Assembly (NCBI GenBank): GCA_000091205.1
Contig: AP006484.2
Length of the DNA stretch: 64,000 bases
Strand: one strand, 5' to 3'
From: Cyanidioschyzon merolae
Taxonomy: Eukaryota
Positions within the stretch are counted from its first letter, which is position 1; each line of letters starts with the position of its first letter. Below are positions 9,370 through 42,799 of this stretch, piece after piece. The position numbers were made by a program, and so were the translations under genes. The notes beneath the pieces were generated by a model. That model was not told the DNA's origin, did not search any database, and worked only from the letters and a program-made list of their open reading frames with translations.

Positions 9370-10254
9370 GGAGTGTGGAAAAGCGGGTTCCAGGGCTCGG
9401 CGTAGGCGGTTACCCCGGTGCTTATCCAAAGCGTACAGTGAGATAGGTTTTTATTCTAGCTGCGATGCGAGCATCGATTCCATAGCACAATAGCATTGCG
9501 TGGAAGCACGGGGCGAACTGTATCCATGGGAGCCTCTCGAACCGGAACCTGGTGTACTATGCTATGGATGCTAGCCTTGGATTCGTCTAGCTTTCAACGC
9601 ATATCTCAACGCGCATGGCATTGGTACGTTCCAGGCCGATGGTATGGATCCTGGCCTTGGATGTGTGTATCGCTTTTACCATAGGAATAGAAACTTTTTG
9701 CGCAAGTACTTGCAGTCCGACGTTCTCGTGCATGAGCGACACCCGTTTCAGATTCAAATGGAGCACTGAACTGTTCGGTGTGTTCCAGTATTTCGATAAT
9801 TTGCCAGTTATCTTCCGAGGTACAATCGCGACGCAGCAAGTGCATCAATATCGGGGACCAACGGCTTCATATGTCGTTTCTGGCAATCCAGGCGCCATTT
9901 CGGAGTGACTCATTCGACGCTCCGTCACTGGAATTTATTGCTTCTCCGGAATCAAGCGAAATAGCGACGCCATGGAGAAAAGGTTCGTAAAGTAACAGGT
10001 ATCATGATGCAATGAATAGGGGCCTGGCTTCCACGCTTCCCCTTGTGTGCACAATGCCGAAAGTATGTGTGCTTCAACTTTCCGATCTTTGTATTCAATG
10101 ACAACGGGGATGCATGGCAACACAGATTGCCGAATAAGCGACACGTAAGCCTCGACGTCGTGCCTTGGCGACTTCCGCAAAAATTCATACGGATCATTCA
10201 CCGAACATGTCACGTTAAATCATGGATTCCGTTTGACTGACACATGCTCCTTTC

Positions 10255-10560
10255 ATGTACGAAACGCCAATTCATTGCGGCAGGGTACCTCACACACGAG
10301 GTGTGCGCTCAGAGGACCGAGCGCCATCCATTTGCATCGCAAGGTATCTTGGACTCCGACTCTAGTCATCGTAGCGATCGCTTCGAGTGGAGGTTGGATC
10401 GACGCCTGGCAGGACGGCTGCGTCGACGCATCCTCTTTGCTTGCACGGGACGCCTCCTGGGATATTCCCTCGGGCACTTGATTCATCATGGACGACTTCA
10501 CGGCGTTCTGCAAATTCTCTGTCGAATACGACACTGTGCGCTTGTACAAGCAGCGCACAG
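10255..10560. repeat. Dispersed repeat family C, copy 1. It is homologous to 41210-41470 at about 65-70% identity.
   Basis: Shared blocks include ccatttgcatcgcaaggtatcttggactccgactctagtcatcgtagcgatcgc versus ccatttgcacggagcagggtcttggattcggactcgagtcatcgcagcgatcgc. Further shared blocks lie downstream (cctgggatattccctcgggcacttgattcatcatgg / cctggattctcctgccggtgcttggttcatcataaac). The overlapping ORFs on the two copies do not align collinearly as proteins, so this looks like a DNA-level repeat. Confidence 0.7.
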
Positions 10561-11149
10561 TGTACGCTCCGAGCGGATCACCCAGAAGAGGCCCGTCATC
10601 ATCGAGTACAACACGCCGTGCGGAAACAGAGGCGAGCATCGACGAGGAGCCCTCTGTACCCGTCATGGGCGTGTACCGAGCAATAAAGCAAGAGCTCACG
10701 TGCAAAGTGACGGCGCTCAGCGTAGAACGTGTGGTGGAAATAGCTGTACAATGAATCGCAGTCACGTATAATACCGCTGTGAGAAGCGCATCGAAGCTGT
10801 CGACAAACAACATGAAAATGACATGCAAAGCATACATCGCTACCTGCGCCTCTTCATGGAATGCATCGACAGGAGCCGAACGTACCAGAAACCAGTATGG
10901 AACGCCATCATCCATATCCTCCTTCGACCGCTGTCAACAGACCTATCAGGCCAAAAGACACGCGCTTCGTTCAAACCGAAGATATGGAAAGAGAGGGCGC
11001 GTTCGAACGAACGCTGTCACACGAGTATCCCACCAAACCTATTATCGATGACATTGGAATCAGACCCAAAATTTAAACCCTTGTTGGCGTACCTGAGTTG
11101 CATTCTATGCTATTTCACGGGGCTCGATCCCCGCCAGGCCACGCAGTTG

Positions 11150-11482
11150 ATGTGTTCCGTGGGTGCTCCACGATGCGAACTTGCGCACCAACCGCTGCAC
11201 TCGGGATTGCGCGCTGTTCTCTGTGTGGAGCACGTTCTCGGCATGTCGTCTTCGTGTCGAGAGCTTTTCGAGGAAATGGTTCGGTGTCTTTCGGACTCGG
11301 AGTGTGTGCGTTCGCATCCTGACCCAACGCGAGCACTGAGCGACTGTGCTCGACGCGACGCCGCTGGAGTACCGGACACGTGTCGAGGGACGATTGAGGC
11401 CTACGCAACCTGTCGAAGAGCCCAGATCGATCCTGCTCGTCGGATCATGGGTAATCCAGCAGCTCGTGTCAAGCACGAATAG
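11150..11482 (+). CDS. Possible small twin Cx9C (CHCH-domain) protein. Weak call.
   Basis: A 110-aa reading frame starts at ATG 11150. It contains CRELFEEMVRC (C-x9-C) and CRGTIEAYATC (C-x9-C) about 28 residues apart. No other support; it could be a spurious ORF in GC-rich DNA. Confidence 0.25.
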   Translation: MCSVGAPRCELAHQPLHSGLRAVLCVEHVLGMSSSCRELFEEMVRCLSDSECVRSHPDPTRALSDCARRDAAGVPDTCRGTIEAYATCRRAQIDPARRIMGNPAARVKHE

Positions 11483-11607: not shown

Positions 11608-13560
11608 TTAGCGATGACTACGCGTACCAAGGCTCATCTTGCCCGCAAAGAGGTGATGCGGTTTGCGCGTACCGATGAAACGATCAGACTCGCCTTGGCG
11701 GTGCTCTCGTCCGCTAAACGCGCGACGCAGCGTCCGCTGAACGAGTTTCTGGGCGTGGCGAGCCTGCACAACATCACGCAGACCAGCAGGAACCAGGGAC
11801 TGATCGCTTACAGCTCGAGTTCGATAGACAACTGGTGCAGAGTGAGCTGCTTTTCTGGTCTGCTGCTTGGTGGTGCTTGGGTCGACAGCGCGCCCCCATG
11901 GTCGCTTTGCAACCGCCTGCGACGTCTTGCGTACCTTGAGAAGCGCTTTGCGCGATAGCTTAGGTCGTTGGGTGCGGTCTCGGGCAGCTTGCTGCTGACG
12001 AAGCCGTCGCTGGTTGCGAGCTTTCTCCCGAATCAGCGCGACATCGGTGTCTGACGGTTGATCAACCGGGACGTCTGCACGCGGCTCGTCACCGACGGCG
12101 TCTGAAAGCATACTCTGACGCATCGTTTCCTCTTGCTCAAGGGCAAGCAGCCTCTGATGAATCTCCGGATCAACATAGTCCGCTATGTTCTTGCCGTCTA
12201 CGATCTCCGGAATGTAGTCATAGCGCCATGCTGGGTCTGTTAGGTCGTAGTGCTTGCGCCAGTCCATGCTGTAGACGCCTGCACCTCCGTGGTCGCGTTC
12301 CAGTTCACGCTCCGTCTTCCGGCCTGCTCGGCTTGTCGACAAGGTGCAGGCCAGTTCAGGTGCGGTGTTTTGGTTAAGTGCATCGTCCGCATCGCGCAGA
12401 GCCTGGCGGCGTTCGAGGACTGAAGCGGGAATCTGCGGTGTGCGAACGAGCTTCGGCTCCGCGACGTGCAGCCGGTTCAGTACAGAGTCCGTTTGTCTGC
12501 CGCTAACTTTGAGAGAGACACGCAGCGCTAAAAGTCGTTCACAAGCGCGATTACGAACCGCGAACACCGATGCATATCCGTCGTCGCCCATCGTGGATGC
12601 CGTCATCAGCTCTGCGCCCACTTGTTCGGCGGTTTCCCGTATCGCCGTCCACGTTGCCGGATCGAGTTGCTGTTCCCAGCCAAGATCCGTCTTATTGCAT
12701 ACCACGAAAAGAGGCTTGTCAGCGAACAGCGGTTGAAGGGAACGAAGCAAGGCCAGTTGCTGGGCTATGGCGTAGCCACAGGTCTCTGACGGGTCCACGA
12801 AGAACAGAATCGCCGCCTGGAGATGTGCCAGCGCTGTAATCGACTGCATCTCGATGGTGTTGCGCTCATCGAGGGCGTGATCCAAAAGACCAGGTGTGTC
12901 GATGACCTGCCAACGCAGGTACTGGTAATCCATATGACCGACAAACAGGGACTTTGTGGTGAACGCATACGGTTGGACGTCGACTTTGGCGTTGGTGACG
13001 CAGTTCAAGAACGATGACTTGCCAACGTTCGGATAGCCCGCAATCAGCAGCGTTCGCGTCATAGGGTCGATACTAGGTAAGCGCGCCATATGTTGGCGCA
13101 CTTGCTCCAGATACGCTAACGCTGGGCGAAGGTGTTTCACCGTTGTGCACATTCGACCCAGAGCGGCTCGTTTGAGGCACTTGGCACGGTAGAGAGAGTC
13201 TGCGTATTTGAGTTGGCGCACGTAGTCGCGTGCAAAGCTGTCCACAAGGCTGCGTATCCGACTTACTTGACCAAGGGCCAGTTTGTAGTGATCTCGGTCA
13301 TACAGCACATTCAAAATATCCGCATAAAAGGGATGTAGTTCCTCTAAAATCGGAAAGTCGCTGAGGATCTTTGTCAGGCGCTCATGAAAACATGACTGAG
13401 CATAGCGCACCTTGCGTATGTAGAACGTCCGAATCCGAGTGATCGCATACCCTGGGTGCACAACGGTGGGGGTTTTGCGCTGTGTCTGAGAGAGTACGAT
13501 ATCGATGAGGTCCAGTGCCTCCGGTACCACCTGGATGTGCTTTAGACCCCCTACAGTCAT
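11608..13560 (-). CDS. NOG1: Nucleolar GTP-binding protein 1 (NOG1)
   Basis: The ORF 11608-13719 contains MTVGGLKHIQVVPEALDLIDIVLSQTQRKTPTVVHPGY...HPFYADILNVLYDRDHYKLALGQV...LIAGYPNVGKSSFLNCVT...FTTKSLFVGHMDYQYLRWQVIDTPGLLD, which is a typical NOG1 N-domain and G-domain. Alignment to NOG1 places the true start at Met54 of the track ORF (ATG at 13560), giving about 650 aa. Confidence 0.9.
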   Translation of the reverse strand: MTVGGLKHIQVVPEALDLIDIVLSQTQRKTPTVVHPGYAITRIRTFYIRKVRYAQSCFHERLTKILSDFPILEELHPFYADILNVLYDRDHYKLALGQVSRIRSLVDSFARDYVRQLKYADSLYRAKCLKRAALGRMCTTVKHLRPALAYLEQVRQHMARLPSIDPMTRTLLIAGYPNVGKSSFLNCVTNAKVDVQPYAFTTKSLFVGHMDYQYLRWQVIDTPGLLDHALDERNTIEMQSITALAHLQAAILFFVDPSETCGYAIAQQLALLRSLQPLFADKPLFVVCNKTDLGWEQQLDPATWTAIRETAEQVGAELMTASTMGDDGYASVFAVRNRACERLLALRVSLKVSGRQTDSVLNRLHVAEPKLVRTPQIPASVLERRQALRDADDALNQNTAPELACTLSTSRAGRKTERELERDHGGAGVYSMDWRKHYDLTDPAWRYDYIPEIVDGKNIADYVDPEIHQRLLALEQEETMRQSMLSDAVGDEPRADVPVDQPSDTDVALIREKARNQRRLRQQQAARDRTQRPKLSRKALLKVRKTSQAVAKRPWGRAVDPSTTKQQTRKAAHSAPVVYRTRAVSDQSLVPAGLRDVVQARHAQKLVQRTLRRAFSGREHRQGESDRFIGTRKPHHLFAGKMSLGTRSHR

Positions 13561-13950
13561 GGTGTCGTCGTAAGCAAATACCAATTGGAAGCGAGCTCTT
13601 CGTGTGAAGTGAGGGCAATGGTACCCAGGGAGTACTGGCTGCTCTCGAACGCCGCGTAGTGTAGGTACGCTGTGAACGGGTACGATAGACGTGTCCCCTG
13701 GAGCCGCCTCGTTGTGCACTCACGAGGAAACAGGTGACCCGATCGCTTCGCTCGATATCGGTATTTGTATGCAGTGGAGGTCCCTTGTTCAAAAAATTCG
13801 ACACCACACCGTCCCTGGTGCACTGCTTTTGTCAGGTACGTTTCCTGAACTCGGCCGGCGACATCGGTATATCCGCAGCCGACGGAGAGTGCGCTGCGGA
13901 CGGCGGCGGCTGCTGCTGCTGCGGGCGGCGCGCCCCAGACGCGAAAGCGG

Positions 13951-15600
13951 GGCAGGTGCCTGGAGGCACTGATCCTCGACACGGGAACTCGAAGCGAAGC
14001 ACGGGGGAACTGTTTTCCGTATTGTGGAAAGATCACCTTGTAGGCAGGTGCCTGGAGGCACTGATCCTCGACACGGGAACTCGAAGCGAAGCACGGGGAA
14101 ACTGTTTTCCGTATTGTGGAAAGATCACCTTATAGGCAGGTGCCTGGAGGCACTGATCCTCGACACGGGAACTCGAAGCGAAGCACGGGGGACCTATTTT
14201 CCGTATTGTGGAAAGATCACCTTGTAGGCAGGTGCCTGGAGGCACTGATCCACTACAGGGGAACTCGAAGCGAAGCACGGGGAAACTGTTTTCCGTATTG
14301 TGGAAAGATCACCTTGTAGGCAGGTGCCTGGAGGCACTGATCCTCGACACGGGAACTCGAAGCGAAGCACGGGGAAACTGTTTTCCGTATTGTGGAAAGA
14401 TCACCTTGTAGGCAGACTGGAGGCAATGATCCTCGACACGGGAACTCGAAGCGAAGCACGGGGAAACTGTTTTCCGTATTGTGGAAAGATCACCTTATAG
14501 GCAGGTGCCTGGAGGCACTGATCCTCGACACGGGAACTCGAAGCGAAGCACGGGGAAACTGTTTTCCGTATTGTGGAAAGATCACCTTGTAGGCAGGTGC
14601 CTGGAGGCACTGATCCTCGACACGGGAACTCGAAGCGAAGCACGGGGGAACTGTTTTCCGTATTGTGGAAAGATCACCTTGTAGGCAGGTGCCTGGAGGC
14701 ACTGATCCTCGACACGGGAACTCGAAGCGAAGCACGGGGAAACTGTTTTCCGTATTGTGGAAAGATCACCTTATAGGCAGGTGCCTGGAGGCACTGATCC
14801 TCGACACGGGAACTCGAAGCGAAGCACGGGGGACCTATTTTCCGTATTGTGGAAAGATCACCTTGTAGGCAGGTGCCTGGAGGCACTGATCCACTACAGG
14901 GGAACTCGAAGCGAAGCACGGGGAAACTGTTTTCCGTATTGTGGAAAGATCACCTTGTAGGCAGGTGCCTGGAGGCACTGATCCTCGACACGGGAACTCG
15001 AAGCGAAGCACGGGGGAACTGTTTTCCGTATTGTGGAAAGATCACCTTGTAGGCAGGTGCCTGGAGGCACTGATCCTCGACACGGGAACTCGAAGCGAAG
15101 CACGGGGAAACTGTTTTCCGTATTGTGGAAAGATCACCTTGTAGGCAGGTGCCTGGAGGCACTGATCCTCGACACGGGAACTCGAAGCGAAGCACGGGGA
15201 AACTGTTTTCCGTATTGTGGAAAGATCACCTTATAGGCAGGTGCCTGGAGGCACTGATCCTCGACAGGGGAACTCGAAGCGAAGCACGGGGGAACTGTTT
15301 TCCGTATTGTGGAAAGATCACCTTATAGGCAGGTGCCTGGAGGCACTGATCCTCGACACGGGAACTCGAAGCGAAGCACGAACGTGCAACAAGGTCGTTC
15401 TATCCTTATGGTAAGCGTTGCACGGGGGAACTGTTTTCCGTATTGTGGAAAGATCACCTTGTAGGCAGACTGGAGGCAATGATCCTCGACACGGGAACTC
15501 GAAGCGAGGCACGAACTTACAACAATTTTGTTTCCATCCTTATGGTAAGCGAAGCACAGGGAACTATTTTCCGTATTGTGGAAAGATCACCTGGTAGGCA
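13951..15600. repeat. Tandem satellite array of about 18 monomers of 92 bp. One 89-bp variant occurs; the distal monomers are irregular and carry about 45-bp insertions.
   Basis: Monomer: ggcaggtgcctggaggcactgatcctcgacacgggaactcgaagcgaagcacggggaaactgttttccgtattgtggaaagatcaccttgta. The phase is visible as the repeated 66-67 aa ORFs in the track at 14024, 14116, ..., 15217 (spacing 92, 92, 92, 92, 89, 92, ...). Monomers at 14024, 14116 and 14208 are identical to those at 14665, 14757 and 14849, which gives a 641-bp higher-order period. The array begins about 390 bp upstream of the NOG1 start codon. Confidence 0.95.
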
Positions 15601-16160
15601 GAAGGTTTCGTGAGCTAGACGAGTCTGCTAGGCTGGTGCTTCACTCTCTAGACAGTGGCAGGTGCTGTGGCGAGCTCTGAGCAGCTCGTCTGCAACGCAA
15701 TTCATTCTGGGACTAGGTGCAGTTAGGCTGAGTCTGGGCTTCGCACTGGTCGTGGTTGACTCCTAGCTTATCGATTCGTGCTGTCGCAGGCAGTCGGTCT
15801 GCCTGTACACTTTACATGCTCCCAGAATAGCTATGTACTCCGACTCCTTGTCGAATGGAGCAGGCATCGAGCCGAAACCCCGCCCCCCCACCAGTGGTGT
15901 GGCAAAGCCGTTCTGGCCCCGTGCTACGTACGCACTACCAGCACAGGCGCTACTGCGGGTGCTCATGGCAAGTACTCGGCGCACGATAGACCGTACGAAA
16001 CAACCAGTATATTCGAGAGGAACTAGGGGTCATGGAACCTGGAGGCCGGATGCTGCATGACGAACTTTTTTTCGAATGCTAATATCCATCCCACAGCCTA
16101 GGAACCATGGCCAATGTAAATGCTTTTTTCAGAGAGAAACACGCGCCCAATGGAGCGATC
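15560..16160. repeat. Dispersed repeat family A, copy 1, about 600 bp, directly following the satellite array
   Basis: Homologous over its whole length to 25801-26410. Examples: cgtctgcaacgcaattcattctgggactagg versus cgtctgcaacccagtttattctgggaatagg; tggcaaagccgttctggccccgtgc versus tagcaaagccgttctgtctccgtgc; aaccagtatattcgagagg versus aaccagtatatccgagcgg; atccatcccacagcctaggaaccatggccaatg versus atccatcccgctacgctggatccatggtccatgg. Confidence 0.85.
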
Positions 16161-18898
16161 ATTACGTTTCAAAATAGAAAACAATTCTTTCATGGGATTC
16201 AACCACGGAGCGCACGGAGGAATAAAAAGCAGCTCTGCCCTTGATAGATTCGGCAAAAGCTCGAACGCGAGTCGAATGGTGAAATACCACGTTGTCCTAT
16301 AGAGGGATGTCGCCAGACGCCAGCGGAAAAGTCTTCAATGATTCGGCAAAGTCGTTGGTGCCATCGTATGAATCCTCTGTACCAGCGAAACCGCGGCCGG
16401 CAAATGAATCCACTACCGCTAGGACAGATGATGTCGTCAGAGTTCTCTTCGAGATCCATCGCGCACACAACGGGCTTCCTGCTCTGCGAGTAGTCACATG
16501 CGCTCCAAAGGTTTCACTTAACGGAGTTCTCATCGACTGAAAAAACCACCCCAAGTCCCAGTGCTTCATACCGATCGCTGAGTTCCAGGAATTCTGTTGT
16601 TGCGATTTCAGTGGAAGATGACTGTGCATAAACTAGGACTTGTTTCTGCGACTTTATGCCAGTGTTTCAGGATCACACGAATAAGACGTTGAGAAGTATA
16701 GACGCACATGACGAATGATATCTTTGCTTTTGCTTTCCGTTAAGTGATCAAAGATTCGCCTTTGACGATGGACCGCAAGCACGCCTTGAGACGATCGGGT
16801 TTTCGCGCGGGGCATATAGTCGTGTTTCTTTCAGGGTTCCGCAGCCATCAGAGTATTGTGTTATGACTGACCTGATTCAGAAATGCAGTCCTTGTTGCGC
16901 TCTTCAGTAAAGCATATATCCTGCAGGCAATTCGACTACGATCTGTCCGGCACGTTGCATCGTGCTTTCGATCAGCTGCTATACCCCGCAGCGGAGGTTG
17001 CACCAACATTGAGTTGAGAGCCCATAAGCGAGCGCTGCGATACCTGGTGATTCATTGATGTGCGTCGGTGTAATTTTTTATCAAAAAGTGTGTGCCATAA
17101 AACCAGGTCATCTATGGGTGTGCGGGCATAGCTTCTGGCCTATCGCAACGCGCCGCTAGTCTTGGTGATGCACTGTTATGTGTTGCGATGTCCTTTCATT
17201 AGTCAGCATGCTTCGTGGAAACCAGGATGGCTGTGAAGAACTTCACCGTGTGCACGCCCTGATGTCTGGTATGTAGTGTAGCGGGTCGTTTGGCGCAGCC
17301 ACGTATGCACACGGAAACATCAGAACGCAGCTCCATACGATTACAGCTCCCGCTTTTTAGAATCAGCGTCGTGTCTGGCGATGCTGCACAGCGCTATGTG
17401 CACAAGGCGGGGCAGTCGCACAGTAACATCGAAAGGTTTGCCTTGTGCCTTGAAGGACTCCGCACGTTGTGTTGCGCTGTTGTAATGCGCGAGACTGGGG
17501 TCCGCGTGCGTCTGTTCTCGACGGATTCAAGGCAGCGCGCAAGCATGAGCGCAAGGCGTCTTCCGCGTCTTCCGCGTGCTTCTGGGAGACTGCGCGCGCT
17601 AGCCTGTTCGTATGGACGAGGCGGATCGTAGACCAAGCCGAACAGCAATGGCAGGTTTTTTCAGAGCTCTCCCGTACTCGGAATCGTGCGCCCTTCGCGT
17701 CTCAGAGGCGTATCTGGTCGATACGCAGCGCCTGCTAAACGGTATAAAACTCGGGTTCGAATCCGTCCATGATTATCGGATGCAGCGCACGCTGCACATC
17801 AGTGGCGTTTCGCGGAGCCCCAGAAGAGCGCCTAGCTGCGTTGCGCCGGGCGAACGATGCTAGATGTTTGCCGCCCAGCGCGTTATTGCCTAATCTGGGC
17901 ATCGTTGACCGCAAAAGGGTCATTCACCGGGGATACTTGCTACCTCGTGATATCTGTGATGACTTTTAGCAGATGCCCAGCGGAGCCAACATCTCGATAT
18001 AGCGATCTGGGCATTACAAATCACAAAAGCCTAAAGTTCGACATGCAGCAGACAACCCCCCGGGTCGATTAAGATAGCGAGCTCTCATACGAACGGGTTG
18101 TACGGCTGGATCAACTCGGGTTTCTCCAGATGAGCAAAACAGACTAGAGCGAAATGGCATGGGATCTGAGAGACATCCACTTGCATTCAAAGAGGGCACT
18201 TGTCTCGCATGATGGGCCGAGCCCTCGAATCATGCTTCCAAACCAAAAACGATATCTACTGAACGGCATCCAAATTTCGCAAGAGAGCTCGTTTCGCTAC
18301 GAAAAGTAGAGCAAAACACCTCTGTGGTCGGTGAAAAACGCCACCAGCTCGATATGGCTGTAAACTGATGCAATCCATGGCCTGCTGGAGAGACACCGCC
18401 CCGCTTCAATTCATCTGCCCGATACTGACTCGGAACGAGTGTTACGGAAGAAAATTCGATTGAGCCGAAGAAGCAACACCTCAAACAATCGCCAAAGAAG
18501 CTCCAGTGCGATCATTGGCGATGGAACAATGAAGATAAGAACATGACTGAGGCTCGCTAGTATCCTGTACCAACTTACACCACTTTTCTGGTGCAAAGAG
18601 ATCGATGCATCATGCTTGAGACGCAGCTACTGCTACCTACCATAGCTGCTGCCGCAGCGAGCACTGCACCCTCTTATGGGACCGCACCTAGTTCGACTCG
18701 AGCGCGATTCACTGAGCTACAGTGCCACTCGCATAGAGTCACCCACAGGTATTATCAAGTCTCTGCGCGTTCCGTTGATTAACTCGAAAACAACGCCACC
18801 TCAGCGGTCCCATTCACCAGGCTCCACTCGCAGCGGTTTATCCGAGTGTCGGCGCCAGCTCGCTGTACGCTGAAAGATCCTCGACGCGCACATACCGC

Positions 18899-19153
18899 CT
18901 ACGACCGTTGCTGTCGCTCTATCATAGCCTTGCTAACAACTCCCATGGACTCAATGTACCTATCGACACACTTGGCTAAACAGGTCTGCTCCCCGGAGGT
19001 CAGCGTAGCGCTTGGTTTGGTCACGCACTTCTCAAAGCACTTTTCCGTCACTCGTTGTACGAGATCCTGAAACGCCTGCCGCAGCATCTCATTTCGAACA
19101 CGATCTTCAAGCTCCGCCCGCTGTGATGGCGTCAGTTGATCTATTTTATCCAT
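18899..19153 (-). CDS. Small Tim protein of the mitochondrial intermembrane space (Tim8/Tim13 family)
   Basis: The 84-aa ORF carries the twin Cx3C motif: ...VTEKCFEKCVTKPSATLTSGEQTCLAKCVDRYIESMG. The segment CFEKC-x15-CLAKC followed by DRY matches the Tim13 signature KCFEKCI-KPG--L---E--C---C-DRY. Confidence 0.7.
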   Translation of the reverse strand: MDKIDQLTPSQRAELEDRVRNEMLRQAFQDLVQRVTEKCFEKCVTKPSATLTSGEQTCLAKCVDRYIESMGVVSKAMIERQQRS

Positions 19154-22100
19154 AGGTAACGGTGGTAAACGTCCAGTGAAGCCGGAATGCGGCGGTTACC
19201 TCGTTGTGTGCAACTGCAGGCACCCAAGGCGACGTAAAGCTATTGAAGTGCATCGGCGGCGCCTGTGGTGCCGGCGCCCGGTGCGACGGCACCATGGATG
19301 CGCTGTCGGAGGTTTGTATGCTCGGGGTCACGGGGGATGCCCTGCTCTTTTCTCCAAAAGTATTGTGGATCGAGTAAAATGCCGGTGACTGGCCCGCAGC
19401 ACGTATGCAGCGCTTATACGGCTGCCAGGATAGAACTGCAACGAGTTCACTGACTCAACGAGGGCGAACACGCGCAAGTTTGCGTTATTTCATATCGTCA
19501 ACTGCACCAGAACTTGGGGGTTGGTTTTTCGGTCTCCTGTGTCGCGTCTCCAACTTTAAATACGCTGGTCTCTCGTTTCGCTCCGATTTCGTGAGCATCA
19601 GTCAGAGGATCGTGATAACAGGGCCAAATTCTCGTTCATAGGATTTCCGGTTGGCATAGACACGTGATAGGCGCAGGCGAAAGTTTCGATCGAATCTTCA
19701 TTGGCCATGCTCACCTATTTGTTTGCGGCATCGGCGTACGCTTTGCAGCGATCACACCCGACTATGGTCAGATGCTGCCTTGTCTCCAGCGTGCTTCCTC
19801 GTACGAGTACTGCCCTCCGGCGCTTGAACTGTTGCTGCATCGCTCTGTACACGCACTAGACGAGTACAGAAGACTCCCCGTCGATGCCCTCGACCGTTTT
19901 CGCGTCTGGTGCCGTACCCGAAGATCACGAGCTTCGTCAGTGGCGATGCCCCCGACGAGTACTCTGTATGCGTCATATGCGAGTGCGCACTGTTCCATGC
20001 CATTGAAGATTTGTGGATTGCGGTGTTCGCCATGGTGGTAGGGATTTGGAAGGAAAATGCAGGTTGGAGAACTTGCCGAGAACTATCGATCCGGTGGCGT
20101 TCTCTTCATGGAAACCTGTGAAGCTTTCCCCATTGGAAGCCGTCTCCGCTATGTGTAGAGTACGAATCCATGAACACTTTTCATGCAAACAGAAGACAGG
20201 GTAGCCTCTCTGGGAGCATATCCCCTGAATTGTATCGTGCTGCGGTTGAATCCGCCGATTCATCGACGGGCACACAGAGAGAAGCACCTGTCTTTCGACC
20301 CGCGTCGAGTATTTGACATGCGCTTGGGAAGAAGTCGTCAAGGAAGGTCGTCGAGATTCTCTCCTCATCGAAGCAGGGACGCGCATAGCTGTGCTCCTCG
20401 GTTACCTTGAAACAGAAAGATCGAGTTCTAGGAAACTGTATGAATTGAGCACGCGATATTTACGGAACGGAGAAGAGTCAAGGCTTGTTGTTCTGCATTG
20501 CGTTAAAATATCGGTTATTATAAGAGCCCTTGTACGAATCTGTCGCATGTCACTGTGATGATGGTGAGGTGACGAATTCTACTGGGACTTTGTCGAAGGG
20601 GCCGTCCCGGAGAAAACAACCGCCGAGAATCGTAAACCAAGGTATGCATCCAAGAACGCCAATTCCCGCACTTCGAAATTAGAGGCGCAATATCAACACA
20701 AGTTCGCAGAGAAAATCGACAGATAGAAACAGAACGAGCAGTTCAGTTCGCGATGGTAGTTCGACACCATTGTGGAGCGCAGCAGCGTATCGCGCTCGTT
20801 CGACTGTACCTGGACGAGTTCGGATAATGTGCAGTCGGGCACACGAACCAGCCCGGGCAGAACTTGGTCCAGGCTCACCTGGGATGCTGGAGTGTCCTGA
20901 GGCGCAACTGGGTATGCCCGTTTGCCGAAACGATTCATTGTCGTTCGTTGGCACTCGTTTAGAGAGACACCCAGCTGCTAGACATGTGTGCACCATGCGT
21001 CCTTGGTGCGTGCGAGCGACGAATATCCCAATGTCGTCGGATCCCGTGGATGACAACCACGCAGCATCGACTCGTTACTCGTTCGACGCACTAGTTGATG
21101 CCGCGGGCGTGCCGCCATCGCGTGCTATAGCGCGTCCTGCGCCAAAGGCGAATACCGCACCACGTGACTTGTCGGTCATGTTCTTTGCCACTTCATTGAT
21201 GAAGCCCGCAAATCTATGCATCTTGCCTCCATGCAACCGATACCGTTGGCGGCCCCAGCGAGGTCTCTCGGAACGCTGTCGAAAATCGTTCGCACGAGCC
21301 ATGTGGACGCTTCTGCTCTGTCCAGTGCTGGGCGCTACGGAATCGATGTTGGCACTGTCACGCCATTTGTTGGTATATACGCTGGCGTCCATAATGCTCG
21401 ACTACCCATAAACGCGAACAATGGAGAAATCAAGCCATATTACATATTCTGTCTGAGCATCAATTACCCTGTCATATGAAGGTTCTATCGAAAATTTCGA
21501 GAGGCATCTGCTCAGCTGGTAGCCCTGCGTCCGGATCGGCTACAGCAAGTCGTTTGACGAGGTGCATCGGGGCGAGAGCGGTGCCTCGCGAGACTTTGTC
21601 GCGTAAGGAGCTATGCGATATCTGTTGGCGTCCTGAATCTATCGATTAGCCGGAGACGAACTTGTTGGCTAGTGATCTATGCGCGTAAAAACCGCGTTTG
21701 CCGATAGTGACAATGCCGTACACTGGATAGAAGCTGGGAGCATGGGCTGGTACGAAGACCAGGTCCAGCCAAATTCCAGCTGTATGCTCCCTGTTTCTTG
21801 TTCAGTCATGGAACGCGACATTGCTAACGAGCAGGACAGACGAATTTGGTAAGGAGGAGCTTGGCAGAGAGACTCGATGAACGACGCGTCGTCGAGCAAT
21901 CCTAACCGTTCGGCGATTTGGGGCCGGCCTCACGCTTGACTCCCCGCTGGGCCTGAAGCCGTTGTCGCACGTGCTTGACTCCTCTTTACGGCCGGAGGTC
22001 TGCCCCTACTTCATCAACGATGCACAGACCTGCCAGTCTTCCCGAATCAAGACTCATCGAATGAGACGAACACCATCCAAACCTGTACTGACAAAAATTC

Positions 22101-23469: not shown

Positions 23470-24984
23470 GCTTCGCATATGGTATATCAGATGGCGGTGA
23501 TGCAGAGGACGCATCGAAATCCTGAATAGATTTCGTTAACGACGGTTGTCTGGGTGCCCTGATTCCGAGGACAAGGCGCTCAAAGGGGATTTTATCGAAG
23601 CATGTTGACACTCTGGAGCCAGTTACGAGAGCCAGCGCACCAGTGACATTCAGAATCGCAGCCTAGTACCTGTTCATGGACGCACAGTGCCGTGCGTCCA
23701 AAAACAAGTGTCACGTGAGCGTCGACATCGATGCCGAAAGCAGACGCTTATCCTTCGAGTCGTTGATGCCCTGTGCCGGCTGCAGCGATCGTCGTAGCGC
23801 TGCGGATGTGTTGCGAGGCGAGCCCAGTACCCTGGTTGCGCATATGCTCCAGTGCATCAGGTATGATGCTGGCAGGCGGTACATGCTCGCTGCAGATACA
23901 CAGGTTGGTGAGTGCGCGACGGACCGACGCTCTGACAATCACTTTCACGTACGTATTGCTTTCGAAGCAGTCCGCTGCGCGACATCGATGGTCCCGGTGT
24001 CGTGGATGCTGATAGCGCCCACTGGGAAGACGCTGCATCTCTCGAACCGCAATGCGCCGAGAGAAAGTTCTTGAAAGCGGAGATACGGGCGCATAAGAGA
24101 CGGCGTGGTCTGCTTGGATAAGCATACATGGATGCTGGCCGGGGTGCCACCTGCTGAACACCAGGATGGTAGAGCTCTTTTCTGACGATGCCTCTGCTGC
24201 TCCTGCTTCTGCTGGAAAAGAGAGCATAGGCCGCCTGTTCGTCTACTGCACGACCTGTTGCATACGTTCGCGATTTGCCTAGCGCCAGCACAGGTCGTGT
24301 AAAGTTCCATAACGGGCGGATAGCCTCCCATTCGGTTGCCGGCCTGTTTGGATGTTATGGATGGCGGCATGCGATCGGCTTGTGGGAGCTCGCAGCACTT
24401 GGCTTTTGGCTCGTCCAACGCAAGGCTCAACATACAATCCACCTAGAGCTCTGGATCGTCCAGAAAAGCTACGAGTCAGGGAGGCGGTGACTTGTCGCCT
24501 ATGTTTGCAGAAGAAGGTCGATCTGCGGTGCGCGTAGCACAGCACTCGATATGAAACTTTGTGCTTTTATCCGTTCCCGCTCCGTTTGGATACGGAGCGC
24601 GCACGACGCAGAGCTCTTTGCGAGCACGCCGAGCCGCCTCATGCGCTCCAAATAGTTTCCACGAAACGGGTCGTTCACACGAGCCGTCTATGACGGCAAA
24701 GAACGCATGTCCACTGCTACTACCTAAGTAAGCATACCTGGTTCTGAAATAATCTCCGTGAAAGCACACGAGAACGTCTTGGTGGTTTTGATACCCGGAA
24801 ATACGTCTCAGCGATCGCCGATGTCCACACAGCATCGGCTGCGTCTCTTCCGGAACGTGCCTGGAGAGTCGGTATGAGCCCAGGAGATGTAGCTTTTGTG
24901 GCGGTGCGGCAACAGAGTACATAAATATACACCCACCCGCAGCAACCTCACAGCATTTTTCGACCCGCAGCCTGTTACTGGTTT

Positions 24985-25700
24985 CAGCCTGTCCGAGTAC
25001 ACTTCTAGCCTGAGAGAGGCTGCGTTACAAAGATAGATTGCCTCGGCTCCTCGGGTCTTGTTTCAGCACCGCTCATCTTCTGATATTCATGGCGGCGTTG
25101 AAGTCTCAGTTCACAAACTCGATGCGTTTCTTACCTCTGGTTGAACTCACCAATGCAAGGAGTCCTATAGCTCGTGCCATGTGTGCCCCTACAGCCTCGT
25201 CAGCGCCTCGCCGCGTAAACCCATTGCTCGCTTATCTCCTGTCTTGTTCTTCTTCTTCTTCTTCGTCGCTTGCGCTTCATCGCGTGACAGTCAGAGAGAA
25301 GGGGATTTTGTTCGTTCCTCCCGGGCAGCCGGCGATGGCGGCCCTCGAGGCTCCTCGGCTTCCTTGTCCACCAGTTTCGTTTTTAGTTTTGAAAACGAAC
25401 GCATTTTAAACGCATCTGCTATAAACCGCGAAGGAGTACTTGAATACACGAATCTGAAGGCCGGAACGCATTTGGGATCAAACATCATATTTTGCTCCGG
25501 CTTCAACGCAAATACAACTTGCACGGTAGAGCAGCGGGCTTGATGACGCCATGCTTTGCGCTTGTCGTGCATTGAGCACGTCACCGGCAACAGTGCACAT
25601 TCCGAATGCAACATCGCTAGTTTTCTGGCAAGTCAACGAGTAATCAGGATCGCGTTTCCCTTCAACAGCAACATGCGCGTCGTGTCTCATGCCCGACAGC
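24985..25700 (-). pseudogene. Deleted, degenerate second copy of the Fanzor/TnpB-like element. It keeps a C-terminal RuvC-III fragment with in-frame stops and an upstream leader homologue.
   Basis: Minus-strand translation of about 25060-25170 gives LALVSSTRGKKRIEFVN*DFNAAMNIRR*AVL. The intact copy reads LALVSTTNDGKKRMEFVNRDFNAAINIRRCAVL. The 3' flank at 24985-25040 matches 49830-49860 (tttttcgacccgcagcctgttactggtttc versus tttttcgaccggccacgcactactggttcc). The segment 25640-25700 matches 52540-52600 (cgtttcccttcaacagcaacatgcgcgtcgtgtctcat versus cgtttcccttcaacggcggcgcgcgcgtcgtgtctcat). Confidence 0.6.
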
Positions 25701-25800
25701 TATGGAGGTACGGATCTCGGCTGCGCTATAGAAAAAAGAACAGAAACGATCCACTCCGTGGCAACTAGATCAAAAGTTCTTTCGCCTCTACTATAAGCGT

Positions 25801-26410
25801 TGAAACGGGAACAGCTTTCCGTATTTTGCAAAGTTCACCTTCTCGGCGGAAAGTCCTGCAGGTCGGACAAGACTACTAGGCTAATACGCTGCACTCTACG
25901 GAGCGAAGGGTACTGTAGTGAGATCTGGGCAGCCCGTCTGCAACCCAGTTTATTCTGGGAATAGGGTCTGGTATGCTTCGTCTGGGCATCGTTTTGGTCG
26001 TAGTGCTCTTCTTGCATATCGCTTCGCGTTGTCGCGGGCAGCAAGTCTGTCTGCACAGCTTGCAAGCTCCCGGAATTACACTGAATCCCGATTCTGTGAC
26101 TAGTGCACCACACCTCGCGCAGACGCCATCAGTGGTATAGCAAAGCCGTTCTGTCTCCGTGCAGCATCCGCACAGGCGGTATAAGCGCTATTGTGAGTGC
26201 TCAGATCACGTTAGGTGCACAGTGGAACGTGCAAAATAACCAGTATATCCGAGCGGAAGTACGAATAATGGAACTTGGACTTGTTGGGCAGCCTGCTTGA
26301 CACTTTTTCGAACGCCAGCATCCATCCCGCTACGCTGGATCCATGGTCCATGGAAACGTTTTGGCAAAGAAAGAAATTCGCCCACCGGCGGCATTTGCCG
26401 TAGCTGGAGC
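25801..26410. repeat. Dispersed repeat family A, copy 2. Its first about 60 bp are one diverged monomer of the 92-bp satellite.
   Basis: Copy 2 reads acgggaacagctttccgtattttgcaaagttcacctt; the satellite monomer reads acgggggaactgttttccgtattgtggaaagatcacctt. The rest aligns to 15620-16160 as described for copy 1. Confidence 0.85.
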
Positions 26411-26594: not shown

Positions 26595-27692
26595 ATGTTC
26601 CAGGGCCACTTGAGAGCCTTGTTGCGATCAGTAGCGAAACCCAGATTGCTTGGAGAACTTGCGTCGAAATCAACTGCATCACGAGCACTTGGTCGACAGA
26701 GCACGTTTCGGAGTGCGTTCGGTTGCGTCGGCGCAAGCACCTGGCAGCGCGCAGCTCCTGCCTCCACAACAGCAGCGGCGTCGGCTTCGGCTGATGGCAC
26801 CGGCGGTGACCGAGAAGCTCGTGCCTGGGACTGGAAACCGAAGGCAGTACCACCAGCGATCGGGGAGGAGATGGTCAAGTTGCACCGACAAGCCCCGGAT
26901 AAGTGGAGTGCGGTGGCGCTCGCGAAGAAGTACGGATATGATGAGCAGTTTGTGCAGGCCACTTTAGAGTTGGCCGAACTGGAAGCAAGCGTTCGGGCGC
27001 AAGTCAGTGAAAAGGAATGGAACGACGTCTTTGAGCCATTAGCTCGCGTTGCGCAGGAGTTCGAGGCCGCTGCAGCCGAACGTGCTGGACCAGACTGCCT
27101 CGTGCTCGGCATACCAGCACCATGGGAAGTCTTTCCGAAAAAGGCTGTGCGAAGTCGGGCATCGCGTATGATCTTCTACCGCGTTCGACGCGACGAAAAC
27201 GTTGAGACGGCACAAGCTCGTGCCGTTCGAGCCCATCTTGGTGCACCGGACGAAAGCGGCATCGCTGATAAGGCGCTGCCCGCTCCACACGCGAAGGATG
27301 CCGTCGCTGCCTCTGAGGCCTCGGACGCCGGTGGCCGCAGCACGTCATGGCCATCGCAGCCGTCAGTGCGATACGAAGCGAGCGCTGGGGCAGCGACTGT
27401 CCCGAAACCGCGGGTTCCTTTCATTTTCGTGGAGCGCGCGACAAGTCCTGTGTCTGCCAAGACCGGAAAGTTGCAATCCCAGTTGCGTGTCGTGGTGCGT
27501 GATACCGATGGTACCGTGCGCGAACCTCGTCCCGAAGAGAGAAACTTTGCGTTAGCGGCGTTCGGGTATGGAGCATCGGCGGATGACGATCCTCGGACGC
27601 CGTTGCACCCACGGCATCCTGGTGCGCCGAAGACGCCGCCTCCGCCTCCGCCTCCGCAGTCAACTGTAAGCCAGGAGTCGAATGCCGCATGA
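26595..27692 (+). CDS. Hypothetical protein (365 aa). The N-terminus is basic and hydroxylated, like an organellar presequence; the C-terminus is Pro-rich.
   Basis: It is the longest ORF in an otherwise unannotated interval, with no recognisable domain. A 219-aa ORF overlaps it on the minus strand, so the coding strand is not certain. Confidence 0.3.
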   Translation: MFQGHLRALLRSVAKPRLLGELASKSTASRALGRQSTFRSAFGCVGASTWQRAAPASTTAAASASADGTGGDREARAWDWKPKAVPPAIGEEMVKLHRQAPDKWSAVALAKKYGYDEQFVQATLELAELEASVRAQVSEKEWNDVFEPLARVAQEFEAAAAERAGPDCLVLGIPAPWEVFPKKAVRSRASRMIFYRVRRDENVETAQARAVRAHLGAPDESGIADKALPAPHAKDAVAASEASDAGGRSTSWPSQPSVRYEASAGAATVPKPRVPFIFVERATSPVSAKTGKLQSQLRVVVRDTDGTVREPRPEERNFALAAFGYGASADDDPRTPLHPRHPGAPKTPPPPPPPQSTVSQESNAA

Positions 27693-35176: not shown

Positions 35177-37209
35177 CGCTCCGTCAACGGGTGTGCCAAC
35201 GGGTTTCAGACGCAGCTGCTGACCCTAGTACGGCATTGCAGACGCGCACGCGCGCACGAACCGCTGCGCCTTGCTGGAAATGCGCTCATCGGACGGGCGA
35301 TTCGGGGCTCGGGCGCGCTTATCACCTGCGGATCTTGCAGTTTCTTCGGATTCATGTATTGAACCCGAGTTCCTCGGATACGTGAAGGATCTCGGCTGGT
35401 AGAGAAGCCTCCACTGTTCATACTCACATGAGCCTGCTGCCTGTCGGTCTTAGAGCCGTGTTCCTGTAGGGAACAGAAGCTGGATGGGATCCAGCGACCC
35501 CGAAAGCACCAATGAAGGGCGCGTGCAGCATTGCTGAATATTTCGTGATACAGTATCAGCGAATCGTGTGATGTTTTCCTGCATACCCAATTGACGTATT
35601 TGAGCAAGGAAGAGAATTCAATGCCTCTATATACGTTTCTGCGTAAATCACAGTCCAGATCAGTCTTCCTATCACGAATCTACGCTGTAATGGCCAAGAA
35701 ATCTTGGGCAGGGTAACCAGCACACCGCAAACAATCGCTGCAACGCTGATTGCGGAGCTGCTGCTGCTGCTGCTGCTGCCGTTGTGGACAATCATTCGCG
35801 ACTGAACAGTTCTGCGCTGCCTGTATGCGCGTCGACTCGAGGCCGCCGCCGCCGCCGCCGCCGCGAACGCTCGTGCATCGTGGGCGAACGCGCAAAGCCG
35901 TTCGTGAACGGTGAATCATAAGCTGGGCTTTCGTGTCACATGTTTTCGTATAAGTCAGCCAGACACTCATGTCATGCAATACGCGGAAGAGCGCTACTAT
36001 CCTAACTCGAGCGTACGCTGCACAGTTTGGGTCTGCTCCCACTATCATCGATGCCGGTGTTTGCGGGCTGTTTCAGCGACGGCTTTCTCTTCTTCCCTCA
36101 TATACTGGGCGTTACGTACGTCGGTTTCTCCGGTACCTCCAGTTCCACTTTCATCAGTCTTGGGATATTTATGGTTGTGTTCAAGTCCCGATTCCAATGC
36201 TTCTGTCTGTTGTCCATGACTTGCATACACAGGCGCAACTCGCGTTGGACGCTTCGTTTGCCAATTTCATGGACTCTGTATACAGTTTCGGTGAGCCCTC
36301 GGCTGCGCGGACACGTTGCCTTGGTCAGATATTCCCATATGTCCACCAGGCCTCCTCATCTGAAGGTCGATCTGTGAAGCGTGACCGGCTGCTTCATCGC
36401 TTGCAACATGCCCTTGACGAGTACAGAAGGCGAGCCTCGGTACCGCCCTCTGTATCCGCGCCATGAGCTGGGCGCTATGCTCGCGAGCGTCCCCTTAACG
36501 ATTCCTCGGCGAGTACGCTGTCCGCTGCACACGCTGTTCCATTCCATAGCATACTTGTCGGATGCGATGTCGTCCATGGTGAAACGGGTACTGAAAGGAA
36601 GATCCTGGCCGGAGAACAAGTCGTGAAATTTCGTACCGTCTGCACTCTTGTAGTACGAAGTGGAGGCGCACGTTGCGCCGGAACCGACCGCTGCGATGAC
36701 TCTAGTTCGTGTCTACGACGTTTTCCTAGCTTACATAAGATACAAGATCTTCTCTAGGCATATCACTTGCTAGTTATAATGCTGTTGCCGAATGCGTTCG
36801 TCGATTGCCACAAATAGAGGATAATTTGAATTCCGAAGGGATTCAATTATGCGACATGATAAGTTCAGTGACCTTTTCGCATGAGCTTTTGAACAAATCG
36901 CCAACGGACAATGCCGCGTATCGCTTTCCTCGGTAGCCCGGCAGCGCGGATAGCTGCGCCCTCGAGTCGCCATGAAACGGAAAGATCATCCGTTTGAAGC
37001 AGGCATGATTTGAGTCTGCTATACGTAAGGAAATCAGAATCGTGATGCGTTTTACGTATGGGTTGGGTAATGATATCGGTTCGGTTACGAAACCTTATCT
37101 CAGGACGTCACGGAACGTCTTTGTTCCTGTATCGTAACAAAGTCGACGGACGATGCGCCGAAATAGTCTCTCCCGAACGACGACCATGCATCCTAAATTG
37201 ACGATATCA

Positions 37210-37685
37210 TCCGTACGCCCATATCATTGTACTTGGCCTATAGAAACTATGCATCTCCATAAAAGTCTGCATCCCAATCGCGAGACAGGAGCAGAGCATG
37301 CGCTTTGTACGCCCGTATCATTGTACTTGGCCTATAGAAACTATGCATCTCGATAAAAGTCTGCATCCCAATCGCGAGACAGGAGCAGAGCATGCGCTTT
37401 GTACGCCCGTATCATTGTACTTGGCCTATAGAAACTATGCATCTCGATAAAAGTCTGCATCCCAATCGCGAGACAGGAGCAGAGCATGCGCTTTGTACGC
37501 CCGTATCATTGTACTTGGCCTATAGAAACTATGCATCTCGATAAAAGTCTGCATCCCAATCGCGAGACAGGAGCAGAGCATGCGCTTTGTACGCCCGTAT
37601 CATTGTACTTGGCCTATAGAAACTATGCATCTCCATAAAAGTCTGCATCACAATCGCGAGACAGGAGCAGAGCAAACACTTCTGT
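37210..37685. repeat. Tandem array of 5 units of 94 bp
   Basis: Unit: gtacgcccgtatcattgtacttggcctatagaaactatgcatctcgataaaagtctgcatcccaatcgcgagacaggagcagagcatgcgcttt. Unit starts are at 37213, 37307, 37401, 37495 and 37589. There is no sequence similarity to the 92-bp satellite. The array lies about 330 bp upstream of the SAHH start codon. Confidence 0.95.
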
Positions 37686-39563: not shown

Positions 39564-41209
39564 GCGGAAAGCGAAAGCCCTGCGAGACGTCGCTGCCGCT
39601 ACGTACATGCGGCACGCTCTCGACGGCTTGGCGTGCCTGTGCTGTGCAAAGCAATGGACGCACGTTTAGAGACATAAATAGCGCCTGCTGCATGGATCTG
39701 CCCGGTGTCCGCTCTGTGCATCCTTGAAAGCTTTTGCGAGGAGGTATGTCCACATCTATTGCTCCAGTAACCCAGTTTTGGACAGCTGTGAGCGCCACTT
39801 GCGCAACGCATATGGCAACGGCTGCCGATACCACCAGTGTCCTGACTGCATGTACGAAGGCCTGGGGCGTGCGCCTAACGTTGCAACCACTGCCGTGCGA
39901 CAGAGCAAGCGGCATCGCGGTGGCATTTCGGTGTATGGCCAGGGATTGTGCTTAAGCACGTGACCGCCAAGTACATGTTCATCGTCAGAAATTCATGCAA
40001 TGGACAATGCGAGCTCTACCTCGACGATAGGGTATCGATCGCATGCGGCCTGTAATGACGATTGTAGCGTATGCGCTAGTCCATTGCCGCTCACCAATGG
40101 ACGCGTTTCGTTCGCCAACATGGGGTAGTGTTTGGCGCCTTTTCGCGTAACGATGATGAGCATTGTCCTGCGACCCGTTGCTCCGGCCGTGCGGCAAGGC
40201 CGCATTTCTTTTCGATCGTCTAGGATCGGTGCATCGAACCAGGGATTCTCCCGGTATGTGCGCGGGCGAATGCCCTGAGCGTCGCTGCATGGCTACGTTT
40301 GGATTGTTCTACAAAATCTATAAATATACAAATTTGAAATGCGTGGGGTACACACGAAGCGTCGCTGCATCGCAATGACCGCCTCGTCCTCTAGAATACG
40401 TAAATGAATGAGAATTCGATGGCGTCGATGGCGAGGCTCTTCCAAGCCGCTGAGGGCACCGATTGCGCGAGGCATCCAGCTTCTGCTCTTGTGCGTCCAG
40501 CTTGCGTCATTGGCGCTGCAGCGAGAATAGTCCATGATGTCTATGGACATGAGGAAACAGGCAGTGGACTGTTCAGCGCTGAGCACCGACGAGCACGTTC
40601 GCTGTCGCCATGACAATGTCCGTTCTGGCACACGAGGCAGCTTGAGGATCTGCGCGAGTGCTGTAACATCCGAGTCAAAATAGAATGGAGCATTGGACTA
40701 TGCGACCGGTAACTGTAGCTCGATTCTCTCAGAACTTTTCTCGCATGTTCAACCTCGATATTCGAAGAGCAGCAATAAAGGCTTGCGGATTCACACGCAT
40801 TTTTTTGGATTCGAGGTTGCTTCTTTGGAATAGCTCATACGAATATCTGATGCTGAATTTGGTCACGTCACCGGAATCAGGATGATTCCCAACGCCCCCG
40901 GAATGAAACTTTCGCAAAATAGCCGAAATCAACTTCGATTTCAAATGTACAAGCCTCCAATCTTCTCCGTTCCGGACGTGACGCATGTCTCAAGTCCTCG
41001 ATCATTCTGTTTCGGGATACATCATGGGTAAAGCACTTGCCGCCGTTGGATTGTCGTGGGAAACATACACGGTATTGACTCTTCAGGAGTCGTCCACAAG
41101 GCCATGCTGAGCGCTCACTGCACTTTTCTCGCCGAAAAATCGATTTCGTTAGAGGCACAAATCCGCCACTTTTTGTGGTCAGCGACGAAATGGCATTCGA
41201 CAGAAGCAT

Positions 41210-41470
41210 GATGCCCGTCACTTGATATGCTCCTAGAGGCTCCAGTCTCTTCCATTTGCACGGAGCAGGGTCTTGGATTCGGACTCGAGTCATCGCAGCG
41301 ATCGCCTGCAATAGATAGTTTGTCATCAATGCGTGCGAAAGGCGCATACACAGATCGGAATTTCTCGACTTGATCTCCATCCTGGATTCTCCTGCCGGTG
41401 CTTGGTTCATCATAAACAATATCACGTTCCAGAGATCCCCTATCGAATGGAAAAATGTGCACTGGCGCGT
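41210..41470. repeat. Dispersed repeat family C, copy 2
   Basis: See the family C copy 1 feature at 10255-10560. Confidence 0.7.
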
Positions 41471-42799
41471 CCAGTGGACGCGGTGCTCGCCGAGGGCATC
41501 GCCGGGAGGAGAGAGTGATCTTCAGGTGCGGCACACGGCGCAGAAAAGAGAAAGGGTATCAGGAGGAGCCCTCTGAACTCGCCAAGGGCATGTACTGAAC
41601 GACGAAGCGAATGTCTACTCGCCACAGAGAGTCGTTTAGAGGAGCAGCAATGGTATACATATGGGGACCTTTGAGCACTGCCAAGTCCTAGCGCCGCGAG
41701 GCTCGCACCAAGCCACCATACAAATACGATGAAAATAGCAAGCGAAGCGTAGATTGCGACTTTCGCCAGTGCAAGAAAAGCGTTGACAATAGCCAGAAGT
41801 GTCTACATCGGGACTTGCGCGTTCATCTGCATCGTTCCGCTGCTGATAACAGTGCTTGGGGGTACAAGAGATCCCTGAGTTTTTAAAGCCGGCGGAAACA
41901 GAAAGGAACCGGAACCAGTCGCAGAGACAGCACGCCAACGCCGGCTTTCATCACAGCAGGAAAGGCTCGAGCTTGAAGGTCTACGTCCGAGTGAGCAAAA
42001 CTTACCCGTACCATTTTTGTCCGAGAAGGGTGTAGTGGTACCCGCAGGCGCGTCCCTCGCAGCGCCAGGAAAATCCCCATGCTGCTGCGGCGGCCGAGTC
42101 GTCCGTAGAGTCATGATATTGACGTCCGAGTCATGCTCCAGCGTCTCTAATGCAGGGTCATATACTGGATGAAGGGTGTCAAAATTAGAGCTGCAGCGGG
42201 TATCGAGATGCGTAAATGCGCCCTTCTTCGTGATAAGGCAGATAAACGCGGCAACACGGAATGTTTATCCCGAGGGTCGCATCTTGCGCCTGTCGGCGCA
42301 CCCGAGTAAACGGAAGCACACACAAGCATTGCTATGGAGAGTAAGCGGCCGCTAGCGACATTTAGAACCGGGAAGACACAACAGGACGGTGAGCCTTGCG
42401 GCGGCGGTGGCGGTGGCGGCGGTAGCAACAGAAACTGCAGCGATCTGTTGCTTCCAAGTTTAATTTCGTTCAGAAAGCTTCGCAAGAGGTATAAAGTGAC
42501 TTCCTTCTCAGGACAGATAGGACGAGTCGGGCTTCACGAACTAAGATCCACGCAAACTAGCGCCAGAGAACGCGAGTCGACCACGTGGCGGTCAGCCGTT
42601 TTGGAGCCCGAGGACTCCGCTTAAAGCGAACGTTGAACATAGCTGGGAACAGAAGCAGTACTGCACTTTGAGGCGCCCTAGGTTCAGCTGCATCGAGTCA
42701 GGCAAGTGTTTCTTGGTTATACACGCTGGGCGGTCGCAAGTGTTTCTGGTGCACGCCGGGTGCCCGCTGTAGCTCCAGCGGACCGAACAGGGCAAGCGG

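Follow-up and report, generated by a model that had tools for sequence, protein, structure and literature searches.

A strain-variable minisatellite upstream of NOG1 in Cyanidioschyzon merolae, probably grown from the 5′ end of a duplicated non-coding segment

On chromosome 2 of Cyanidioschyzon merolae, a tandem array of 92-bp units lies upstream of the NOG1 gene and abuts a copy of a dispersed repeat, termed here family A. Where does this array come from, and does it serve the gene next to it? The original prediction, made from the sequence of a 64-kb stretch of that chromosome (hereafter, the window), was that a satellite had been built from the 5′ end of a transposon or MITE. Judged by the alignments and surveys reported below, the proposed origin of the array appears right in substance, while the nature of the parent element and the name given to the array call for revision.

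A 17-unit array upstream of NOG1

The window has a GC content of 54% and carries long, intron-less ORFs on both strands. The features around the array are as follows.

11608–13560, minus strand: NOG1 coding sequence, 650 aa (Pfam NOG1_N, NOG1, NOGCT and MMR_HSR1; 100% identical to C. merolae 10D BAM78943.1)
13561–13950, no strand: unique spacer of 390 nt, from the NOG1 ATG to the array (not homologous to the DNA that precedes the solo copy described below; 225/500 shuffles as good)
13951–15327, plus strand: 15 short units in the order a b c d e f e a b c d a e b g (Tandem Repeats Finder and in-register cutting)
15328–15463, plus strand: long unit h (unit 16), 136 nt, composed of Z + X + Y (in-register cutting and alignment)
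15380–15423: segment X of unit h, 44 nt (unit nt 53–96)
15464–15596, plus strand: long unit i (unit 17), 133 nt, native and contiguous with the body
15597–16149, plus strand: body of family A copy 1, 553 bp, non-coding (blastn against 25794–26384)
18899–19153, minus strand: Tim10-type small zinc-finger gene, at the far end of the 5.3-kb NOG1–Tim10 spacer

Tandem Repeats Finder reports a period of 92 at 13951–15380 (15.6 copies, 96% matches, score 2671), with a tail of 133-nt period at 15277–15602 on the 3′ side. Cut in register, the array extends from 13951 to 15596 and consists of 17 head-to-tail units, 15 short and two long, in the order a b c d e f e a b c d a e b g h i; the tandem amplification originally described is thus real, and its count of about 18 monomers comes down to 17. 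Fourteen of the short units measure 92 nt and one 89 nt (14411–14499), and the long units 136 and 133 nt. As had been noted from the outset, the array begins some 390 bp from the NOG1 start codon, more exactly 391 nt upstream of the ATG (at 13560, minus strand). Between the family A body and the Tim10-type gene, 2.75 kb (16150–18898) are devoid of a conserved ORF or a repeat match.

The short units are 97% identical in mean pairwise comparison. Units 1–5 differ from units 8–12 by a single mismatch in 465 nt, and the four-unit block a-b-c-d is present twice, in near-perfect copies, which indicates that part of the growth of the array is recent. A 24-nt core of the unit occurs 17 times in the array and once more at 25816, with none expected by chance.

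The long units h and i are 89% identical to each other, and segment X is confined to them within the array. Without its 44-nt X, unit h is exactly the 92-mer of short variant a. In this unit, X is bordered by 12-nt direct repeats, AAGCGAAGCACG and AAGCGTTGCACG, and an 8-bp inverted repeat at X gives the main predicted hairpin of the long unit; the fold of the unit is no better than that of shuffled sequences (z −0.4). Each unit also includes two short palindromes, GTGCC..GGCAC and GGAAA..TTTCC. An 11-mer of X, ACAAGGTCGTT (15389–15399), recurs with at most one mismatch in three units of a 75-bp array at 50715–51025. There are six such matches in the window against 0.8 expected, those inside the 75-bp array not being independent of one another; when the latter are counted once, a link between X and the array at 50.7 kb is probably due to chance, and we have discarded it.

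We have also ruled out a coding repeat. The period of 92 is not a multiple of 3 and the ORFs that run through the array on the minus strand are short, meeting a stop after ~81 codons, roughly every three units; hence, the units cannot code.

In sum, the array is a real, ordinary, locus-specific minisatellite, variable between strains, in a published complete genome. Minisatellites, or variable-number tandem repeats (VNTRs), are head-to-tail repeats of a 10–150-nt unit at one locus, as is the case here (17 units, score 2671), with a copy number that varies between strains, again as seen here: 3, 5 and 6 units against 17 in strain 10D, where the counts of 5 and 6 may have been collapsed in assembly. 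Satellite DNA, by contrast, spans many kb to Mb, is abundant and occupies several loci. A single array of 1.65 kb, the unit core of which occurs nowhere else in C. merolae-like metagenome contigs, does not fit that description, and the label “satellite” was overstated.

Two copies of family A, one of them with a single unit

The second copy of family A is located downstream in the window.

25695–25844, plus strand: single diverged long-type unit (Z′-X′-Y′), at the 5′ end of family A copy 2 (alignment; unit core at 25816–25839)
25845–26384, plus strand: body of family A copy 2 (blastn)

The last unit of the array runs straight into the body of copy 1 (15597–16149), as the original prediction stated. 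With blastn, 15546–16149 matches 25794–26384 in the same orientation (68% over 612 nt, E 9e-55). The two bodies are 68% identical with gaps counted and 74% over ungapped columns, with several long conserved blocks. The copies are co-oriented, 10.2 kb apart and situated in different intergenic regions; 211 nt separate the end of the copy 2 body from the ATG of a downstream MRP-L20-like ORF (26595–27692). A search with nhmmer, using a profile from both copies, found no third copy within the 64-kb window.

Unit 16 and the start of the body align collinearly with 25703–25898, through X and Y and into the body. The Y part of the solo unit (25794–25850) is ~80% identical to the array units and its X match beats all 500 shuffles (0/500 as good). 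The Z match is marginal (12/500 shuffles as good) but collinear in position; since it is only marginally significant, the 5′ edge of the ancestral segment is uncertain, at 25695 or 25743. By this alignment, the solo copy carries exactly one unit, of the long 133–136-nt type rather than the 92-mer. The single diverged monomer originally reported at its start is therefore upheld, with a correction of its form, which is the long one and not the 92-mer, and of its beginning, from 25801 to ~25695.

Both of the two known copies carry the unit, 17 times in copy 1 and once in copy 2, and none is without it. The unit of copy 2, a single one of the long type, directly precedes its body. These observations support the proposal that the 5′ end of the 0.7-kb repeated segment is where the unit originally belongs, and that the unit was amplified at the NOG1-proximal locus only.

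Outside the unit and the body, similarity between the two loci ceases. The sequence upstream of the array resembles that upstream of 25695 no better than shuffles do (225/500), and no homology was found between the sequences downstream of 16150 and of 26385, at the DNA or the translated level. As homology ends on both sides, the repeated segment amounts to ~0.7 kb, that is, one unit plus the body. A larger segmental duplication was rejected, given the lack of flank homology on either side and of a decayed paralogue of the MRP-L20-like gene.

No relation was found between family A and the other repeats in the window. Six copies of a 1.2–1.4-kb dispersed repeat, family B, are 55–62% identical (738–2132, 9739–11070, 19527–20765 (minus), 36002–37301 (minus), 40666–42031 and 46389–47393 (minus)). 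Translated similarity amongst them is equal in all frames, so that family B appears to be non-coding. At the end of the copy at 36002–37301 begins a 94-bp array (37213–37674; 4.9 copies, 98% identical), and another family B copy ends with a weak match to a single unit of it (47308–47395, E 0.29). Perhaps the 94-bp array is another example of seeding at a repeat edge.

The genome of C. merolae is known to include an interspersed repetitive element of ~3.2 kb with a truncated WSV486-like ORF, present in 253 copies on all chromosomes (Nozaki et al. 2007, PMC1955436). Like family A, it is lineage-specific, non-genic repeated DNA in the same genome; unlike it, family A is 0.7 kb long and has no ORF. 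The density of family B in the window is far above what the 253-copy element would predict. A 290-aa ORF without a Pfam match (49919–51157, minus), the 5′ end of which is overlapped by a 75/150-bp repeat, may belong to the truncated-ORF element of Nozaki et al. 2007. The stretches concerned, besides the ORF itself, are 21078–21434 (minus), 25052–25180 (minus) and 52320–52528; two translated fragments of the ORF occur elsewhere in the window, and its flanks match 24939–25180 and 25324–25532, just upstream of family A copy 2.

The locus in environmental strains and in a Cyanidiococcus-like relative

We scanned JGI metagenome contigs (241 million records, C. merolae-like genomes included) for the unit core, with an exact pattern that misses diverged copies. 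Of the ten stretches retrieved, nine correspond to the two loci in the window; the tenth (L008; 40% GC) is unrelated and was dismissed as a chance match. Further C. merolae-like contigs, with flanks 97–99% identical, were collected through look-ups with NOG1 and Tim10. In three strains, the array is spanned by contigs with unique flanks on both sides, listed here with their identity to window positions 15597–18360.

L010: 97.1%; units of 136, 89 and 133 nt (3 units)
L018 / L007: 98.8%; units of 92, 92, 136, 89 and 133 nt (5 units)
L017 / L013: 99.2%; 6 units

The counts of 5 and 6 units are lower bounds, as short-read assemblies can collapse near-identical units; the units of the 3-unit array in L010 are mutually distinct, and that count is hence more trustworthy. 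Most of the remaining contigs break off at the edge of the array or within it, in keeping with a long, near-perfect repeat. The array is present in all the strains seen, with differing unit numbers, and it is in 10D that the short units on the NOG1 side have expanded most. With 3, 5 or 6 units in the spanning contigs, growth to 17 units probably took place in the 10D lineage alone.

The spacer between NOG1 and the array (13561–13950) is 98.6–99.5% conserved in the environmental strains, which are ~99% identical everywhere, a divergence too low to read constraint from. Both family A copies are present in all environmental strains, and no empty-site allele of family A was found in any of them. 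In one contig (L002), positions 1–82 duplicate the beginning of the NOG1 coding sequence where upstream sequence would be expected; it looks like an assembly chimera beside the array.

In a more distant, Cyanidiococcus-like relative, NOG1 is 74% identical and the order NOG1 – Tim10 – APS kinase – MRP-L20-like – hydrolase is kept; the Tim10-type gene of the window has a 79% nucleotide match to the zf-Tim10_DDP gene of this relative. The two spacers that hold the family A copies in C. merolae measure 5.3 and 3.1 kb, against 1.74 and 1.28 kb, respectively, in the relative. No family A sequence was detected in the latter, a result that is uninformative as intergenic DNA is unalignable at that distance. 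Between SPT6 and NOG1, C. merolae has an ORF with a PET191 domain (10823–11482) that overlaps a family B copy; the relative lacks a PET191-domain gene at that position (L003 11968–12573).

Nature of the repeats and formation of the array

Most simply, family A is read as a non-coding segment that underwent a local, dispersed duplication. The element invoked originally, a non-autonomous mobile element (MITE- or SINE-like) with a satellite born from its terminus, seems unlikely to us, in spite of several features that would suit it. The two copies occupy different intergenic regions, with an abrupt end to their homology at either edge; the array begins at the very base where, in the solo copy, homology reaches its 5′ limit, as expected of an element terminus; both intergenic regions are far longer than in the Cyanidiococcus-like relative; and a second array in the window (94 bp, 37213–37674) also abuts the end of a dispersed repeat. 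Against this stands the number and disposition of the copies, two within 64 kb, 10.2 kb apart and co-oriented, with pattern scans and an ORF-based search yielding no others. The unit core was encountered only at these two loci and is absent elsewhere in the metagenome collection, and an internal block of family A, scanned against viral contigs and the genomes of prokaryotes, gave no matches (0). When a spurious ORF of the body was used for a protein search, the only hits were orthologues of copy 1; this search is insensitive, as it missed even copy 2. No terminal inverted repeats, the mark of a MITE, are shared by the homologous ends of both copies; the short ones seen differ between the copies and are of a size expected by chance. 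There is no clear target-site duplication (none was seen by eye in flanks whose edges are fuzzy at 68% identity), and no ORF is open in both copies. A SINE would have a head derived from tRNA, 7SL or 5S, bearing a pol III promoter, and a tail that is A-rich or a simple repeat: family A has no tRNA-like sequence and, like the array, no Rfam match at gathering thresholds. Moreover, no environmental strain offers an empty-site allele, and only 34 transposable elements, 0.7% of the genome, have been reported in C. merolae (PMC1955436).

It is highly improbable that family A, with or without its units, represents a duplicated gene that specifies a structured non-coding RNA. The copies keep 68–74% identity with several long conserved blocks and, on the plus strand, their alifold consensus fold is slightly better than that of column shuffles (z −1.6, 6/100). 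That score falls short of significance, which simple column shuffling exaggerates; the minus strand scores z −0.4, not significant either. The apparent compensatory pairs are alike on the two strands (15/130 and 12/117), as expected when a structure is fitted to two sequences, and the gathering thresholds of Rfam were not reached. As far as these searches tell, there is no sign of a product encoded by the array or by the 0.7-kb segment.

Two roles in cis may be considered for the array itself. One is a putative cis-regulatory module, with tandem binding sites acting on NOG1 or its neighbours and the number of units tuning expression, a role that would be compatible with an origin by slippage or unequal exchange. 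The proximity of the array to the NOG1 start (391 nt), the two short palindromes per unit, of the kind bound by dimeric factors, and the retention of the array in every strain examined speak for it. On the other hand, unit numbers from 3 to 17 among strains with 97–99% identical flanks look like neutral copy-number drift, and nothing of the sort precedes NOG1 in the Cyanidiococcus-like relative; we regard regulation by the array as quite doubtful. The other role, a centromeric or pericentromeric repeat of chromosome 2, is suggested by the unusually long, gene-free spacer of 5.3 kb, and merits next to no credence. In the account given in bioRxiv 10.1101/096016 (citing Kanesaki 2015), C. merolae centromeres extend over 2–3 kb and show a low GC content (48.4%) but otherwise no apparent pattern in their sequence. 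The CENH3-bound centromere of chromosome 2 has been put at 212.6–213.5 kb, and no repeats are described there (PMC3744952; bioRxiv 10.1101/096016). The GC content of the array is 53.5%, and the lowest-GC stretches of the window lie elsewhere, at 55–59 and 61–63.7 kb. A centromere role for the array is, thus, unlikely. Those lowest-GC 2.5-kb stretches (55000–59000 and 61000–63750) have 48.2–48.9% GC, equal to the centromere mean of 48.4% in the account cited above.

We consider it likely that the array is a locus-specific minisatellite. Chromosome 2 of C. merolae holds two paralogous non-coding segments of ~0.7 kb, in intergenic regions that neighbour each other, and the array would have grown out of the 5′ end of one of them through slippage or unequal exchange. 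The starting point is an ancestral segment, a Z-X-Y unit followed by the 0.55-kb body, which is present twice in copies of 68–74% identity. In the simplest reading of the subsequent steps, the first ~135 nt of the NOG1-proximal copy would have been duplicated in tandem to give units h and i. The unit and the body both start with GGCAG, a 5-nt microhomology that could have mediated this duplication, which would be the older event, units h and i being 89% identical now. A deletion of 44 nt between the 12-nt direct repeats would then have removed X, a stretch that spans the hairpin-forming inverted repeat, to yield the 92-nt unit. Indeed, X is common to unit 17 and the solo copy, which argues that X is ancestral and the 92-mer a deletion derivative; the two long units adjoining the body appear, from their structure, to be the intermediates. 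The short unit would have been amplified on the NOG1 side, latest as a multi-unit block (a-b-c-d, twice). The series of identities, from 68/74% through 89% and 97% to one mismatch in 465 nt, is consistent with this order: segment duplication, doubling of ~135 nt, deletion and amplification of the short form. With 3–6 units in wild relatives, the outcome is a variable-number tandem repeat.

In its features, the array resembles the minisatellites and VNTRs that arise by slippage and unequal exchange: a single, non-coding locus with a unit of ~90–135 nt, internal variant units, block duplications and copy numbers of 3 to 17, depending on the strain. Unlike in usual cases, a source paralogue with a single unit survives 10 kb away and two long intermediates are kept, by which the order of events is directly readable. 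Tandem arrays that originate from parts of transposable elements are also known, such as MITE- and Helitron-associated satellites and arrays expanded from element termini. In common with them, the array upstream of NOG1 has a monomer whose homology is to ~135 nt at the terminus of a repeated element, and it abuts the rest of that element; in contrast to them, the element here lacks the hallmarks of transposable elements and is known in two copies, and the array is neither dispersed nor abundant.

A bolder proposal would make family A an unrecognised, non-autonomous mobile element in a genome that is reputedly near transposon-free. The terminus of family A, like that of the 1.3-kb family B at the 94-bp array, would then seed arrays in fast expansion between hot-spring strains, with altered expression of neighbouring housekeeping genes such as NOG1. 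We hold this to be very unlikely. As a minisatellite derived from a local duplication, the array is otherwise an ordinary genome feature that changes no general view and is notable only for its legible history. It offers a small, clean example of the birth of a tandem array, in which the source, the intermediates, the deletion and the recent blocks can all be read, and natural relatives show 3, 5, 6 and 17 units. Homologous recombination allows C. merolae to be edited, which makes it possible to test directly whether unit number affects NOG1.
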